A stretch of DNA of 64,000 bases, taken from positions 1,393-65,392 of the forward strand of contig CAZUIY010000341.1 of the NCBI GenBank assembly GCA_964619975.1. Reading direction: 5' to 3'. Origin of the DNA: an uncultured Gemmatimonadales bacterium. Lineage in GTDB: Bacteria > Gemmatimonadota > Gemmatimonadetes > JACCXV01 > JAHWKZ01. Position 1 is the first letter of the stretch, and the number at the start of each line of letters is the position of its first letter. The notes beneath the pieces are model-generated. The model was given only the letters and a program-made list of their open reading frames with translations, was not told the origin of the DNA and ran no database searches. Shown here piece after piece: positions 23,955 to 29,387 of the stretch. The translations under genes were made by a program, and so were the position numbers.

Positions 23955-24404
23955 ATGATTGACCTCGATCGCGCGCTCCACGAGGCGCGCGACAAGCTGG
24001 ACAACGGCTCGCCGGCGAGCGCCGTGGAGGTGTTGCGCGACCTGACCGAGGCGGTGCAGAGCCGACGCGCCTCGGCGCGCCACCACGCCGACCGCATCCT
24101 GCGCGCCAGTGACGGCGACGAGGAGTGCCGCGACACGGTGGTCGACGACGCGGTGGCGCTCGCGGAGGGCGTGGCGATGCTGCCGCGCGTGGAGCTGATG
24201 GGCGAGGTTGAGGTGGCGGTCGCGGCGGGAGTCGCCGTGCGGTCGACGCCGCTGGCGGCTGTTCACTACGAGCTTGACCAAATCGCAAATCTTCCCGACC
24301 CTGTCGCGACGCTGGTCGCCGGACGGGTGTGGCTGGCGGACGACATACGGGCGCTGGTGCGCGAGCGCCTGAAGACCAACAACGACGAGAAGGGAACGAG
24401 CTGA
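23955..24404 (+). CDS. hypothetical protein
   Basis: 149-aa ORF downstream of P1 with a good SD. Confidence 0.45.
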   Translation: MIDLDRALHEARDKLDNGSPASAVEVLRDLTEAVQSRRASARHHADRILRASDGDEECRDTVVDDAVALAEGVAMLPRVELMGEVEVAVAAGVAVRSTPLAAVHYELDQIANLPDPVATLVAGRVWLADDIRALVRERLKTNNDEKGTS

Positions 24405-25363
24405 TGGCCGGACAGAGGACGACCCTGTCGCTGGGCGGGGTGGCGGCAGAGGTGTCGCTGGTGAAGATGAGCGGCAAGCCGAAGGACGCGCAGCACGAGG
24501 TGAGGTGGCCGGACCCGCCGGTCGGCGCGCCCGAGGGCGAGGGCGACCCGGTCGGCGATCTGGCCATGTCGTCGTTCGAGACCAAGGGCGACGCCGGCAC
24601 GAGCGGGCCGGGTGCCCCTCCGCCGGTCGACGTCGGCAGGGGCGACCCGCTCGGGGGGACCGAGCCGGAGGACCCTGCCGCCGGCTTCGCCGCGGCCGTG
24701 GGCGTGGGCGGCTCGGTCGAGCCGCCCCCCGAGCCGGTCAAGCCGATGCACGGCGTGACGCTGGAGTCCGGCAAGTGGGTGGACCTCACGGACCGCCTGG
24801 AGCAGATCGACGAGGCGTGCAAGCTGCCGGGCATGGAGGTCGTCTCCACGGTGCCGAGCGCGTCGATCCCGCGCGAGCGGGTGGTGGCCGCCAGCTGGGT
24901 GGCCAGCACGGACCCGCGCGCGGCGCGGGTGCTCGCCCTCCTGTGGCGCGGCCTCGACTCCACGACCCGCGTGGCGGCGGTGCGCTGGACGAAGCGGACG
25001 AACCAGGCGCTCGGCGTGCTCGTGCCCCGCACGCTGCCGGGCGGCAAGCGCGCCCTGGCCCTGCTGGAGATGGAGTGGGCCGAGAACATGCGGCCCGCGC
25101 CAGCATCGGCCACCGGCCCGATGGACGCGGACGTGTCGGACGCGGAGATGGACGCGGCGAAGCGGCTGGTCGAGGCGCTGGCCGGGAAGCCGTCGGAGCT
25201 CGACGAGCTGCGCGACGAGCGGCTGGCCAAGCGCGCGGAGCTGCTCAACCTGGCCCGCGAGGGCAAGGTCGAGGGGTACGTGGCGCCGGAGCCGCCAGCC
25301 GACGCCGAGCCGGTCGAGGACGTGGTCGCGCGCTGGGAGGCGCAGGCGGCCGCGCGATCCTGA
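24404..25363 (+). CDS. ku: Ku-like DNA end-binding protein (with about 100-aa Gly/Pro-rich insertion)
   Basis: The N-terminus (TLSLGGVAAEVSLVKM) resembles the first Ku beta-strand (SIAFGLVNVPVKVY). Core similarity to Mt-Ku across GKWVDLTDRLEQI ... ALLEMEWAENMR (Ku: LLWPDEIR) is judged from memory only. Confidence 0.45.
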   Translation: MAGQRTTLSLGGVAAEVSLVKMSGKPKDAQHEVRWPDPPVGAPEGEGDPVGDLAMSSFETKGDAGTSGPGAPPPVDVGRGDPLGGTEPEDPAAGFAAAVGVGGSVEPPPEPVKPMHGVTLESGKWVDLTDRLEQIDEACKLPGMEVVSTVPSASIPRERVVAASWVASTDPRAARVLALLWRGLDSTTRVAAVRWTKRTNQALGVLVPRTLPGGKRALALLEMEWAENMRPAPASATGPMDADVSDAEMDAAKRLVEALAGKPSELDELRDERLAKRAELLNLAREGKVEGYVAPEPPADAEPVEDVVARWEAQAAARS

Positions 25364-25366
25364 CGT

Positions 25367-25621
25367 GTGCGCGGCGGTAAGCGCCCCCTGCGCGGAGGCC
25401 CCCTCGACGGGGCAGAGTCGGCCGCCGGAGGCAGCCAGAAGTGGTTCGACCGAGGGGGCCGCGCTCACGCTCGCGCGGCCCCCGATCGACACCTCTACGT
25501 CCGACACGGCGACGAGTGGCGGTGGGCCGGCTTCGGCTATCGCGAGTGCGGGGGATGCGGGGCCGTGCTCAAGCCGAGCGAGGGGCGTCGCGCGGAGGCG
25601 TGTCCGCTCTGCGGAGCGTAG
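25367..25621 (+). CDS. small zinc-ribbon protein, or first repeat unit of the downstream multi-zinc-ribbon gene separated by a frame break
   Basis: 84 aa ending YRECGGCGAVLKPSEGRRAEACPLCGA (CxxC-16-CxxC). This is the same unit architecture as the repeats in the next ORF, which is in the +1 frame with no start codon of its own. Confidence 0.4.
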   Translation: MRGGKRPLRGGPLDGAESAAGGSQKWFDRGGRAHARAAPDRHLYVRHGDEWRWAGFGYRECGGCGAVLKPSEGRRAEACPLCGA

Positions 25622-26900
25622 GTGCGCCACGTGCCGGGAGGTCAAGCCGGTGGCCGAGTACGCGGGGCCGACCGCGCGGCGCTGCATCGCGTGCACGCCG
25701 CCGCCGGGCCGCCAGTGCGCGACCTGTGGCGAGCGGAAGGCGAGCGACGCCTTCGCGCCGCGCGCCCGCAGGTGTCAGGAGTGTCGGGCCCACCCGCCCC
25801 AGCCGCCGCCGAGGGCCTGCCGGCGGTGCGGTGCCGAGCACCCGGTGGCGGACTACCGGCGGGGCGGGACGCTGGGGCCCTGCTGCGCCGGCACGCCGCC
25901 GCCGTCGGCCACTCGGCCTCGGGCGTGCCTGCGCTGCCACGAGGTGAAGGCGAATCACGACTTTCCGTGGGGGGACAAGTCGCCGAACCGCAACCCGTCG
26001 AAGACGCCGCGCATGGGCCGGTACCGCCGCCGGTCGGGCGTCTGCCAAGAGTGCTGGGATCGCGAGGCTGCCGAGCGCGCCGAGGCCGCGCGGGTGGTGG
26101 CGGAGCGCCAGCGGGCGTACAGGTGGTTGGAGGACGGCGTGTTCGTGCGTCGCTGCCGGGCGTGCGACGAGGTGAAGGTGGAGGCCGAGGGCTACTACAC
26201 GAACGGGGCGCGTCGCAAGGACGGCACGCCTCGCTATCAGGGCAAGTGCAAGGCGTGCCTAATGGCCCACAAGCGGGAGCAGCTTCGCGAGCAGATGAAG
26301 GACCCGCACCTCGCGGCCAAGATCATCGAGGGCCGGCGCGAACGTCGTCAGCGCTGGCGGAAGAACAATCCTGAAAAGTATCACGCCGCGCAGCGCCGCC
26401 ACCGCGAGCGCGTCATGGCCGATCCGGAGCGCCGGGCGCGCCACCTTGAGAACCGGCGCATAGCGGGTCGCCTGCGGCGCGAGCAGGAAGGGCACGCCCT
26501 CGCCGTGAGTCCGACGCGGACGACGGCGCCCGCGGGGCCGGAGCGTGGGCGTCGGTGGCTGCCGTTGGCACCGCTTCTCGACCTGGTGCAGGGCCGCCTT
26601 CGGCAGGCGCTGGTCACCGATGCTGGCCTCGTGGTCTCGGCGCAGAAGGGGATGCCTACGCGGCGGTTGGTGTGCGAGGACCTTGGAATCAGCGCCCGCA
26701 CGCTGAGTCGGTGGGAGAGCGAGGGCGGCAAGGTCGAGCACGACACGGCCGATAGGGTGCTGACGCGCGCCGGCCTGCTTTGGCATGACGTGTGGTTCTG
26801 CGACGAGCACCCGCACCACCATGAGGGCTGCGAGGCATGCGCGGGCGCGGAGGCCGCCGAGGACGCCTGGGAGGGCGCGGGGTGCCTGGTCGCCGCCTGA
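25622..26900 (+). CDS. protein of about 7 tandem zinc-ribbon (CxxC-x15-20-CxxC) units with C-terminal HTH; start unresolved
   Basis: Repeats RRCATCREVKP..RRCIAC / QCATCGERK..RRCQEC / CRRCGAEHP..PCCAG / CLRCHEVK..CQEC / CRACDEVK..CKAC. HTH at LVCEDLGISARTLSRWESEG. The frame carries no ATG/GTG/TTG until after the first CxxC. Confidence 0.5.
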
Positions 26901-27403
26901 CGCGCCGCGAGGGCCGGGCGCTGCTGGTGGGCGAGTCGCCGTGTCGGGGGGCCAGGCCCGGCGGCCGCGCGCTCGACGGGCCGGCGGGCGATCGGCTGGC
27001 GAGCTACCTCGGCGCGCTTCCCGGCTACATCCACTGCGACAGGCACGCGCTGCTGGAGGAGTTCGACACGGTGAACCTGCTGGGCCGGTGGCCGGGCAGC
27101 CAGGGCAAGGGCGCGGCCTGGTCGCCCACGAAGGCTAGGAGGGCGGCGGGACGACTTCCCCTCCGGGGCGTGGTGGTCCTGCTGGGCCAGCGCGTCGCCA
27201 ACGCCTATCAGCTAGGCGGCCTGTGCTGGGCGCACTGGCTGCATACCCCGGCCGGCGCTTGGGTCACGGCGATTCCCCATCCGTCGGGCGTGAACCGCCT
27301 ATACAACGATGAGGCCATGCGTGCGCTGGTGGCCGAGGTGCTGCACGGCGCGCGCGTCGCCGCCCGGGACGCCCGCCCGCCCGCGCTCGTTCGCCGCAAA
27401 TAG
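26879..27403 (+). CDS. uracil-DNA glycosylase superfamily protein (family 4/5-like)
   Basis: N-terminal GESPCRGARPGGRALDGPAGDRL (compare GEAPG...G.PF.G.AG..L) and C-terminal HPSG motif (IPHPSGVNRLYN). Confidence 0.5.
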   Translation, partial: GVPGRRLTRREGRALLVGESPCRGARPGGRALDGPAGDRLASYLGALPGYIHCDRHALLEEFDTVNLLGRWPGSQGKGAAWSPTKARRAAGRLPLRGVVVLLGQRVANAYQLGGLCWAHWLHTPAGAWVTAIPHPSGVNRLYNDEAMRALVAEVLHGARVAARDARPPALVRRK

Positions 27404-27425
27404 CGGGGCCGTCGGGCATCGTCGT

Positions 27426-27471
27426 TGCGGCGTGCGGGTGGTGGTCTGTAGCCTCGACGCCGTACCCGATT
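27426..27471 (+). promoter_or_regulatory. promoter P2 of the conserved family (-35 TTGCGG, 18-bp spacer, -10 TAGCCT, leader GTACCCGAT)
   Basis: Directly visible; SD GAGGAT, then GTG 27486. Confidence 0.6.
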
Positions 27472-27485
27472 TTGAGGATGGCTCA

Positions 27486-28728
27486 GTGCATGAACTTCCC
27501 AGCCTGCTTACCGGACCGCACGATGCGCGGCTCGACGATCCACCCCGCGTCCTGTCGGTCTGCTCGGGCGTCGGCGGCATGGACCTCGGGTTCCATCGCG
27601 CGGGCTTCCGCACGGTCGGGCTGTGCGAGTGGGAGCCGTGGCGGCGGAAGGTCCTCGCGCGCCACTGGGGCGACGGCGTCCCGATCTATCCCGACCTCGC
27701 GGCGCTCGCCGATCGCGCCGAGCGGGACCCCGACGACCTACTCGCCGAGCTCGGGGGTCGCGTAGATGTCCTCATCGGCGGTACCCCCTGCCAAGACCTC
27801 AGCCACGCCGGCAAGCGAGCCGGACTCGACGGCGAGCGCTCCGGACTCTTCTGGAGTTACTGCCGACTCCGAAACGCCCTCGGCATCGAGTGGTGCGTCT
27901 GGGAGAACGTGGCAGGGGCTCAGACCTCCAACCAGGGACTGGACTTCGCATCGGTCCTGGGCGCCTTCGTGGGAGCAACCGTCGCTGTTCCCTCCGCCGG
28001 ATGGGGAGGCGCTGGTGTGGCAGCCGGGCCGTGGGGGGGCTGCGTCTGGCGACGCCTCAACGCTCAACACTTCGGAGTCCCCCAGCGTCGGCGTCGCGTC
28101 TTCGTTGTCGGACGCCTTGGAGGCCCTTGTCCACCCGCGGTTCTCATTGAGCGCGAAGGCGTGCGCGGGAATCCTCAAGCGGGCGGTGCGGCGCGGCCGG
28201 GACCTGCCTGGGCCGCTGCGGCTCGCGCTGGAGGGCCAGGCCGGACCGAACTGGCAGGAGGTGGACGACCTGGAGGCCGAGATGGCGCTGGAGGCGCTGA
28301 CGCTGGACGTGGACCCGCCCCAGCCATCCGAGCGAGCGCCGGAAAGAACGCCTACAGCCCCGGACACTCCGGAGGCGACGAGGCAGTGTTCGCCGTCGCC
28401 GGAGCCCTCGACGCCAGCGACGGGGGAGCCGACGACAACGACGCCAGAGCCGGACGAATCGTCACAGGTGGCGCCCAGCCTGACGATGAGGTACGGGGCC
28501 AGCGGCGGCAACGATCTTCAACAGCCGAACGCGCTGGTGGAGGACCCGACGATCGGGTTTCACATCCACGAGAGGATGGACGTGCCGAGGGACGACGCGC
28601 AGGCTCCGACGCTGATGAAGTCGGCGAGTCCGGGGGCGAACGCGCCGGGCGGCCTGCGGAAGCTGACTCCGACAGAGTGCGAGCGCCTGATGGGCTGGCC
28701 GGACGGCTGGACGGTGCTGCTGAAGTAG
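27486..28728 (+). CDS. DNA (cytosine-5)-methyltransferase with interrupted reading frame: motifs I-VIII in frame 0, motif IX in frame +1
   Basis: Motif I CSGVGGMDLGF; motif IV GTPCQDLSHAGKR; motif VI ENV; motif VIII FGVPQRRRRVFVVG (all in the frame of 27486). Motif IX RKLTPTECERLMGWPDGWT sits in the +1 frame and ends at the stop at 28728. Candidate shift sites are 28100-28135 or the G4 run at about 28495-28498. Confidence 0.6.
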
Positions 28729-28793
28729 AGGCGTACACGGAGCGAACCCGCGACGGCGTGAGCACTCCCGAGCGGGTGGACCTTCCGTGCCTG

Positions 28794-29387
28794 ATGGGCC
28801 ACACGGGGAAGGGCGGCGGCGGTCACGATCACTTCATTCGTCAGCCCGCTATGCCCGTCAGCCTGCGGGGCCGCGAGGGCGGCGCGACAGCCGAGGTCGC
28901 CGCCGACGACGCCTCGCCGTCACTTCGGGGCAGCGGCGGCGGCGGCAGTCGTCAGCACGTCTTGGTCGGCTCGGACGAGGCTACGCACACGCTGACCGCC
29001 GAGGGCCACGACGCGAGCGAGGACGGCACGGGCCGAGGCGCGCCGATCGTGCTCGCGGAGAACCAGCGCGGCGAGCTCCGCACGCCGGACGTGGTGCCGT
29101 TGCTTAGCGGGCAGGGCGGGGGGAAGCCGGGCCAGGGGCGCCCGGTGACGTGGAGCAATCTGAGCAACGGCGGGGCGAACGACGACCAGGCGGCGACGCT
29201 CGACACGTCGCACGGAGGGGGTCAGGCGCTCATGGCGGGCGCGGCCGAGGGGGCGGCGTGCGGTCATGATCCCAAGCCGGATGGGCAGCGCTACGCGGCG
29301 TGCGGCGATGGGGTGGCGGCCCCGGTCGCGCACTGGATTGGACTGCGCCTCGGGCCGGCGATCGCGGAGGCGCGGAGTGATGGGTGA
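28794..29387 (+). CDS. methyltransferase C-terminal-like fragment (DASEDGTGRG block, ENQRGELR, degenerate motif IX, motif X-like)
   Basis: Frame-0 ORF after the motif-IX stop. Contains HTLTAEGHDASEDGTGRGAPIVLAENQRGELR, GQGGGKPGQGRPV and C-terminal QRYAACGDGVAAPVAHWIGLRL (motif X with GN changed to GD). May be the displaced 3-prime part of the same MTase gene. Confidence 0.4.
   Translation: MGHTGKGGGGHDHFIRQPAMPVSLRGREGGATAEVAADDASPSLRGSGGGGSRQHVLVGSDEATHTLTAEGHDASEDGTGRGAPIVLAENQRGELRTPDVVPLLSGQGGGKPGQGRPVTWSNLSNGGANDDQAATLDTSHGGGQALMAGAAEGAACGHDPKPDGQRYAACGDGVAAPVAHWIGLRLGPAIAEARSDG

Follow-up and report, generated by a model that had tools for sequence, protein, structure and literature searches.

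A small zinc-ribbon gene probably nested in the 5′ part of a multi-zinc-ribbon regulator gene of an uncultured high-GC phage-like genome

The 64,000-nucleotide (nt) stretch of contig CAZUIY010000341.1 analysed here (the window), taken from the assembly of an uncultured Gemmatimonadales bacterium, has a G+C content of 72% and carries every gene on the + strand. Directly behind a gene for a Ku-like DNA-end-binding protein lie two open reading frames (ORFs) that share their first 250 or so nucleotides, the shorter (25367-25621) wholly inside the longer (25365-26900), in a different frame and with its own start codon. The shorter, here called the small gene, encodes an 84-amino-acid (aa) protein that ends in a zinc ribbon; the longer, here called the array gene, encodes a string of zinc ribbons, a helical region and a putative helix-turn-helix (HTH). 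Using codon statistics, profile searches, structure prediction and a comparison of related loci (numbered L001 onwards), we suggest that translation of the array gene most likely starts at GTG 25365 and crosses the whole of the small gene, the two forming a nested pair, a reading to which we assign a probability of roughly 0.6.

Both ORFs lie where the original prediction, made from the letters of the window, had placed them, the long one in frame 0 with its end at 26900 and the 84-aa one in the other frame with its stop, TAG, at 25619-21. Frame 0 is the +1 frame relative to the small gene. The original prediction had also found no start codon in it ahead of the first CxxC motif, which holds for nearby starts and recurs at loci L016 and L004, but not for the frame as a whole: it is open from 24759, and GTG 25365, separated by 86 codons from the first array Cys, is its sole canonical start between 24759 and 25650. 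Between 25365 and 25650 there is no further ATG, GTG or TTG in this frame. Codon log-odds favour the frame of the small ORF over 25500-25590 and the long frame from about 25600-25620, and the peptide that frame 0 would encode ahead of the array includes SGSTEGAALTLAR.

Where the conserved part of the array protein begins can be read from its relatives. Those without the small gene begin with M(x)RRCxxC on canonical codons, in GTGA and TGATG overlaps with the preceding stop at L001 and L002, respectively, and on an ATG at L019, and homologue N-termini such as MRRCRTC... and MNATRRCGAC... align exactly to RRCATC at 25617. No canonical start stands near the first CxxC in the window, L016 or L004, and in all three an in-frame start exists 86-91 codons upstream. 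At L016 three intact ribbons lie within 260 nt without a start, in a stretch left empty by the gene caller, and at L004 the stop of the small gene falls 15 codons past the first Cys of the array. L016, a locus of an independent metagenome, repeats the frame relation of the window, and its junction, CTGCGGAGCGTAGG, is identical to that of the window apart from a 3-nt indel; this 14-nt identity is within chance at 68% overall identity. The absence of a near start is real and recurs in independent assemblies.

As a single query, the small ORF found no homologue. Its relatives surfaced uncalled, in the other frame of the “N-terminal extensions” of proteins P0021, P0024 and P0041 (loci L004, L006 and L007) and at L005, and a profile of five sequences recovered 38 annotated stand-alone homologues of 81-145 aa, with E values down to 3.7e-24. 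The ORF of the window aligns over its full length at 30-54% identity. The family pattern at the C-terminus is C..C-x13-17-CPLCG; G15, C61, C64, C79 and C82 are invariant, and in the displayed alignment rows nearly all members carry GGPxDG near the N-terminus and end 0-10 residues past CPLCG. The small protein is a member of an undescribed stand-alone family of about 90 aa, and it matches no Pfam, NCBIfam or PHROG family and no known structure. AlphaFold2 (AF2) models it as one compact all-beta domain, with a predicted local distance difference test score (pLDDT) of 91.5 and a predicted template modelling score (pTM) of 0.79. The ORF ends in ...ECGGCGAVLKPSEGRRAEACPLCGA (the residues directly before the stop are also given as ...CGGCGAVLKPSEGRRAEACPLCGA) followed by TAG 25619-21, and this stop is authentic, because the family normally ends at CPLCG plus 0-10 residues and the protein folds as a complete domain.

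The original prediction had taken the small protein's ribbon for the first unit of the array, of exactly the same design as the rest, and the two ORFs for a single broken gene. Neither view survives the comparison. On a unit profile made from 100 family units, the ribbon of the small protein scores 8.0 bits, against 39.7 and 30.5 bits for units 1 and 2 of the array; of four unrelated ribbons in the window, three score 3.2-3.9 bits and the fourth -3.2. A role as unit 0 of the array was therefore rejected on the unit profile together with the existence of a stand-alone small family, whose members share the C-terminus of the upstream ORF. No in-frame fusion of the two families occurs among the 38 small homologues or the top 150 of the 814 array-family matches, GGPxDG is found in none of the top 150 array-family proteins, and at L005 a stop and another ORF separate the small gene from the array gene. 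The small gene and the array gene are thus two separate genes. A count over the six frames of the whole 64 kb window gives only 15 instances of the pattern CxxC-x8-25-CxxC, and with a pattern this rare a ribbon that abuts the array is not a chance feature.

The small gene also stands apart in its codons. Its G+C content at third codon positions (GC3) is 0.82, against 0.91-0.97 in the neighbouring genes; GGA makes up 33% of the Gly codons of the small gene in the array-linked loci, compared with 7% in the reference genes of the window, and the Pro of GGPxDG is encoded by the rare CCT in 7 of 10 loci. Synonymous conservation of the small gene shows a modest excess (z 2.55, versus 1.28 in the array part), and pairwise synonymous-site identity likewise shows a modest excess only.

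The evidence that carries the nested reading comes from 11 loci with the small gene, the window included. At 10 of them the next gene lies in the +1 frame, a relation found in 21 of 76 adjacent gene pairs of the window, and at the same 10 a canonical +1-frame start stands 2-14 nt upstream of the start of the small gene, against a baseline of 28 of 96 window genes (29%). Such an upstream start occurs at one of the 11 loci in the +2 frame and at one in frame 0 of the small gene. The +1 start takes the form of the NTG of an NTGA on the upstream stop (eight loci), of TGAcGTGTG (the window) or of an independent GTG behind GGAG (L006), and the spacers from TGA to the start of the small gene measure 1, 4, 4, 4, 7, 7, 10 and 10 nt, all of them 1 mod 3. 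The +1 frame is open over the entire small gene at 11 of 11 loci, versus 2 of 50 small genes in the window; given the amino-acid sequence and the codon usage of the window, the probability of openness multiplied over 10 lineages is 1.6e-4. L014, the sole locus without the +1 start, is also the sole one whose next gene lies outside +1. When the comparison is limited to six unbiased lineages, openness stands at 6/6 (conditional P about 0.04), the start at 5/6 (P about 0.009) and the +1 neighbour at 5/6. One ORF lies within the other, and both frames are intact across relatives beyond chance, subject to ascertainment bias and shared descent.

The conserved upstream +1-frame start and the openness of the +1 frame across the small gene lead us to favour nested overlapping genes over recoding. 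Translation of the array gene would begin at GTG 25365, one base after the Ku stop (TGA 25361-63) and two bases before the GTG of the small gene, and the ribosomes that start there would cross all of the small gene in the +1 frame, yielding a protein of 511 aa whose first 84 aa form a low-complexity extension; the small gene would be nested in the 5′ part of the array gene. Ribosomes that reach the Ku stop, or terminate at it, would be divided between the two neighbouring starts, and a shorter product of 416 aa, from GTG 25650 behind the Shine-Dalgarno (SD) sequence GGGAGG, may be made too.

Several observations weigh against this reading. Every claim about initiation rests on sequence comparison, and GTG 25365 is without an SD of its own and would depend on coupling to Ku termination. 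The extension is of low complexity, as any +1 reading of GC-rich DNA would be, and the frame-0 codon log-odds over 25500-25590 are as poor as those of an ordinary off-frame. In this genome the main start may instead be GTG 25650, which is preceded by a good SD. Three of the loci (L004, L006 and L007) were found through gene models already extended upstream, which biases them towards the pattern, and the loci share descent, hence the P values are optimistic. At five loci (L005, L007, L011, L015 and L017) a normal start also lies near the end of the small gene, so the long form is not strictly needed there. Finally, the contig carries other frame anomalies, in the C5 cytosine methylase region at 27309-29387. 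That long low-complexity N-termini do occur in the array family follows from locus L008, where the only start of protein P0144 is GTG 2596 behind the SD GAGGAG, 85 codons before the first CxxC, and where no ORF overlaps the stretch 2596-2850. The 85-aa extension of P0144 is rich in Ser, Thr, Gly, Pro and Lys, with a GC3 of 0.67 against 0.90 in the rest of the gene, and is seen also at L009 and L010; it may be a remnant of the nested arrangement.

Other routes to the array protein have to be weighed against the upstream start. It could be that the array gene starts only at GTG 25650, the preceding RRCATCREVKP half-unit being an untranslated relic of a recently lost start. This codon has GGGAGG 8 nt upstream and is the start of the public protein P0001 (416 aa, 100% identical), and GAG 25614-16 is a single substitution away from GTG, a change at 25615 that would be silent in the small gene. 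We nevertheless consider the idea unlikely: the half-unit is intact, aligns residue for residue with the N-termini of homologues and shows strong coding statistics from 25620, while the GGAGG arises merely from encoding the conserved R-E-V(K) peptide. After the first Cys, moreover, no in-frame start appears for 85 codons at L016 or in the 50 codons scanned at L004, and their ribbons are intact, so internal initiation does not explain the loci in general, although the window may use it alongside the long form. Initiation could instead take place at the junction itself, on a codon other than ATG, GTG or TTG just before RRC and possibly after termination at the TAG. Termination-reinitiation is common in tightly packed phage operons, and a GGAG (25613-16) stands just upstream. 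The frame-0 codons there, GCG GAG CGT AGG, hold no position-1 or position-3 near-cognate, however, and no candidate codon is common to the three start-less loci, which leaves this route very improbable. '[D/E]RRC' was tried as a first-unit signature to place where frame 0 must be read, and was dropped as too weak (16% vs 5%).

The original prediction had also offered recoding, sequencing error or pseudogenisation as causes of the frame break. A programmed +1 (or -2) frameshift near GCG_UAG_G (25616-25622) would yield mostly the small protein, with a fusion of about 510 aa as a minor product. It would account for a downstream ORF in +1 without a near start, seen at three loci, and for the +1 position of the next gene at 10 of 11, and the junction shared by the window and L016 contains the rare GGA codon and a TAG stop, with ACG_TAA_G at L006. 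The codon in the ribosomal peptidyl (P) site, however, is not slippery, GCG_UAG (window, L016) and ACG_UAA (L006) both giving CGU in +1 without re-pairing, and the GGAG, instead of standing 3 nt ahead of the P-site codon, overlaps it. Folding of 101-nt junction windows at four loci revealed no unusual RNA structure (z -1.15 to +1.16). The junction, identical in the window and L016 to an extent not beyond chance, is only similar at L006 and absent at L004, where no stop falls at it. A frameshift also sits badly with the lack of in-frame fusions among the 38 small homologues and the top 150 array-family matches, and it leaves the conserved upstream +1 start and the openness of the whole +1 frame unexplained; we regard it as improbable. 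When the junction pattern TGYCCNNNNTGCGGAGCGTAGG was tried as a wider shift site, its 19 matches in IMG/VR and GTDB genomes were all chance. Were a frameshift at the non-slippery GCG_UAG_G real, it would be a site type not described in bacteria or phages, and the same device would serve several uncultured high-GC phages, with the fusion made alongside the free small protein. An artefactual indel from sequencing or assembly at about 25620, or recent decay of the gene there, would fit the alternating coding frames of the C5 methylase on the same contig. The same frame relation recurs, however, in the independent metagenome assemblies L016 and L004, the TAG stands at the family-typical end of the small protein, and both ORFs are intact and fold confidently; the identical junction of L016 excludes an assembly error at that point, and the chance that the gene is broken at all is slight in the extreme.

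The conserved body of the array protein holds five CxxC...CxxC units, fewer than the seven or so first counted, with the unit consensus TRRCRRCGEEKPASEFAGRRGRVCEACRE (Table 1). AF2 places short strands or bridges at most CxxC positions with pLDDT >90. An exhaustive profile search gathered 814 proteins at E<=1e-3 into the array family; they measure 186-544 aa and carry 0 to 15 CxxC knuckles (up to about 7 ribbon units) before a conserved core. Broad family alignments were tried for scanning loci and set aside as too diverse. The array protein has no significant match in Pfam, NCBIfam or PADLOC, and a Foldseek search of the PDB gave nothing at E<=1e-3, the best matches being HTH proteins of the XRE type and the zinc-ribbon region of Hpy99I, which leads the PDB matches both by fold and by sequence. 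Against viral models (BFVD), phage and giant-virus proteins match at E 9e-8 to 1e-2, several of them uncharacterised and some named HNH endonuclease, endonuclease VII or beta-beta-alpha-Me restriction endonuclease. The PHROG endonuclease VII family matches at E 0.002, unit 5 giving weak PHROG matches to the endonuclease VII and Lar-like families, and Pfam Stc1 matches 2 of 44 relatives at about 1e-3. In a search for a nuclease domain, neither the array protein nor the 44 relatives matched Pfam HNH or Endonuclease_7 at an E cut-off of 0.1, the only Pfam match of the array protein being a weak one to MerR.

That weak match (E 0.051) falls in the HTH region, as does one to the PADLOC mad1 HTH (E 0.0018). 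Among the relatives, HTH_Tnp_1 is matched in 7 of 44, HTH_23 in 4 of 44 and HTH_3 in 2 of 44, with whole-protein E values no better than 1e-4, and Foldseek on the HTH returns HipB (probability 0.75, template modelling score (TM) 0.52), C.Esp1396I and ClgR, with TM about 0.5. The assignment as an HTH is therefore a tentative one; apart from it, the original description of a multi-zinc-ribbon and HTH protein without a characterised counterpart holds. We infer that the array protein is a phage DNA-binding regulator that joins predicted zinc ribbons of nuclease type to a four-helix region and an HTH, and that it acts as a phage transcription factor or DNA-binding factor.

The protein ends in -AA, as do 64 of the 151 family proteins P0002-P0152 (VAA, EAA, AAA, LAA and others); such ends resemble ssrA-type ClpXP degrons, and their frequency suggests controlled proteolysis of the array protein. 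A helix motif of the family core, YYERVMADPERRAAL, is shared with a 73-aa protein of a viral contig (L039, 2932-3153), whose ORF region looks AT-rich by eye, and may be a mobile helical module.

Table 1. Features at the Ku-like/small gene/array gene locus (positions in the window)
Feature	Position	Strand	Basis or remark
Ku-like DNA-end-binding gene	24404..25363, alternative start 24329	+	Pfam Ku E 3.7e-10; PHROG Ku-like E 2.2e-10
511-aa long ORF	25365-26900	+	Starts GTG; ORF listing
GTG, proposed start of the 511-aa long ORF	25365..25367	+	Overlaps the GTG of the small gene in the string GTGTG
Overlap region; the long-frame reading would give an 84-aa Ala/Ser/Thr/Pro/Gly-rich extension before the first zinc ribbon	25365..25616	+	
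Small gene, 84 aa, GGPLDG motif, all-beta domain ending in a Cys4 zinc ribbon (CGGC-x14-CPLC)	25367..25621	+	Stop TAG 25619-21
Conserved body of the multi-zinc-ribbon/HTH protein, 427 aa + stop	25617..26900	+	Homologue N-termini; AF2 pLDDT 89.3
Zinc-ribbon unit 1 (CATC-x16-CIAC)	25623..25694	+	Unit profile 39.7 bits
Alternative internal start, GGGAGG (25636-41), 8 nt, GTG 25650	25636..25652	+	Public 416-aa model; drops the first CxxC
Zinc-ribbon unit 2 (CATC-x15-CQEC)	25716..25784	+	Unit profile 30.5 bits
Zinc-ribbon unit 3 (CRRC...GPCC), second knuckle CC not CxxC	25818..25889	+	LGPCCAGTP motif also in homologue P0016
Zinc-ribbon unit 4, long loop (CLRC-x35-CQEC)	25926..26054	+	Four invariant or nearly invariant Cys in family alignments
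Zinc-ribbon unit 5 (CRAC-x27-CKAC)	26154..26258	+	Invariant Cys; unit kept in almost all family members
Four long helices with family signature (WRKxNPE...RVMADPERRAR...)	26250..26486	+	AF2 helices 212-290; most conserved columns
Putative helix-turn-helix domain (RRLVCEDLGISARTLSRWESEG...)	26658..26792	+	Weak profile/fold matches
C-terminal tail ...LVAA	26886..26897	+	End of array protein

The genes of the window include an amidase, RecT, a PD-(D/E)XK nuclease, methyltransferases, RusA, the Ku-like gene, a gene of the uracil-DNA glycosylase (UDG) superfamily and DUF5131, and a gene set of this kind (RecT, RusA, amidase and others) marks the window as phage or prophage DNA. A 1903-aa ORF is a candidate tape-measure gene by its size and position. 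The best account of the small gene and the array gene places them in the early/recombination module of a phage-like genome that is uncultured and rich in G+C (72%). The order Ku or Ku-like gene, small gene, regulator also occurs at L004, L005, L007, L016 and L017, and an upstream RusA gene was called in the window and at L017/L018 but at no other locus. A search for frameshift-stimulating RNA gave no Rfam match, and neither a promoter nor a relevant terminator was found. Relatives close enough for a test of the overlap by the ratio of nonsynonymous to synonymous substitution rates did not turn up: 50,697 phage records gave no DNA or protein match, IMG/VR gave distant loci only, and no relative emerged when a single genome of each GTDB species was scanned with a protein pattern.

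The small gene is not always followed directly by an array gene. At L005 (551-721), L011 (about 1250-1395) and L017 (2954-3058) a short helical ORF of 34-56 aa as called comes after it in the +1 frame and continues that frame across the small gene, which gives possible proteins of about 140 aa; behind this ORF stand an array-family gene at L005 and L011 and, at L017, the gene for a 315-aa protein with faint HTH matches. At L014 (3276-3863), L015 (3239-4554) and L017 (3062-4009) the next protein is without CxxC units and not of the zinc-ribbon family, and has faint or weak Pfam matches to HTH families or sigma-70 region 4, to several families at L015 and L017 and to one at L014. The small gene appears to associate with a DNA-binding regulator in general.

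Downstream, the UDG-superfamily gene (26837-27403; Pfam E 1e-4, PHROG 12275) shares 19-64 nt, according to the start chosen for it, with the 3′ end of the array gene, and the methylase ORF, which begins at 27309, overlaps its own end. In the C5 cytosine methylase region the coding frame switches several times, and the codon log-odds alternate to match: profile positions 2-156 of the Pfam methylase family lie in a 692-aa frame-0 ORF, motif IX (LTPTECERLMGWPDGWT) lies in a nested 320-aa ORF in the +1 frame (27766-28728, E 0.0043), and a motif-X-like stretch is again in frame 0 near 29290. Gene decay, indels in the assembly or another nested ORF could account for the switching.

Should the nested model hold, the public gene models are wrong both ways, some being cut short at 25650 and others carried upstream without a call for the small gene, and high-GC phages would hold a conserved overlap of about 250 nt. 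With two starts within a few bases of each other at a stop codon, ribosomes would be shared out between the small zinc-ribbon protein and the regulator, an economical means of fixing the ratio of the two while coupling both to Ku expression. The comparison also defines two protein families that are absent from Pfam, NCBIfam and PHROGs and that both adjoin phage Ku and RusA genes, one of them a nuclease-less array of zinc ribbons otherwise found on HNH nucleases, joined to an HTH. More generally, what looks like a frameshift in a GC-rich genome, a short ORF beside a start-less one, can be a nested gene.

The proposed arrangement resembles the lambda Rz/Rz1 pair, nested or overprinted phage genes in which a gene is contained in full within a second gene of the same strand but another frame, each gene having its own start codon. 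It differs from that pair in that here the embedded gene is the well-folded, conserved one and the enclosing frame would be the low-complexity extension of a regulator, and that a distance of 2-14 nt separates the starts, which lie at the stop codon of the Ku gene ahead of them. The known cases of +1 programmed frameshifting, prfB (CUU_UGA_C, which requires an SD at 3-nt spacing) and Listeria phage PSA (CCC_UGA), share with the window and L016 an upstream ORF that stops at the junction and a downstream ORF in +1 without a near start; unlike them, the present locus has no slippery P-site codon, correctly spaced SD or significant structure, and its junction is not conserved at L004. The array protein itself recalls the zinc ribbons at the N-terminus of phage and giant-virus HNH, endonuclease VII and Hpy99I-type nucleases, and those of Stc1, with which it shares CxxC-x3-K-x4-aromatic...CxxC units. 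In contrast to these nucleases, it has no detected nuclease domain and combines a five-ribbon array with a helical region and an HTH. With XRE, HTH_23 and IS3-OrfA-type regulators it shares a predicted C-terminal three-helix HTH with a G-I-S-x-R-T-L-x-R-W motif; here the matches are weak and apparently below curated thresholds, and the HTH follows a zinc-ribbon and helical region that those regulators lack.

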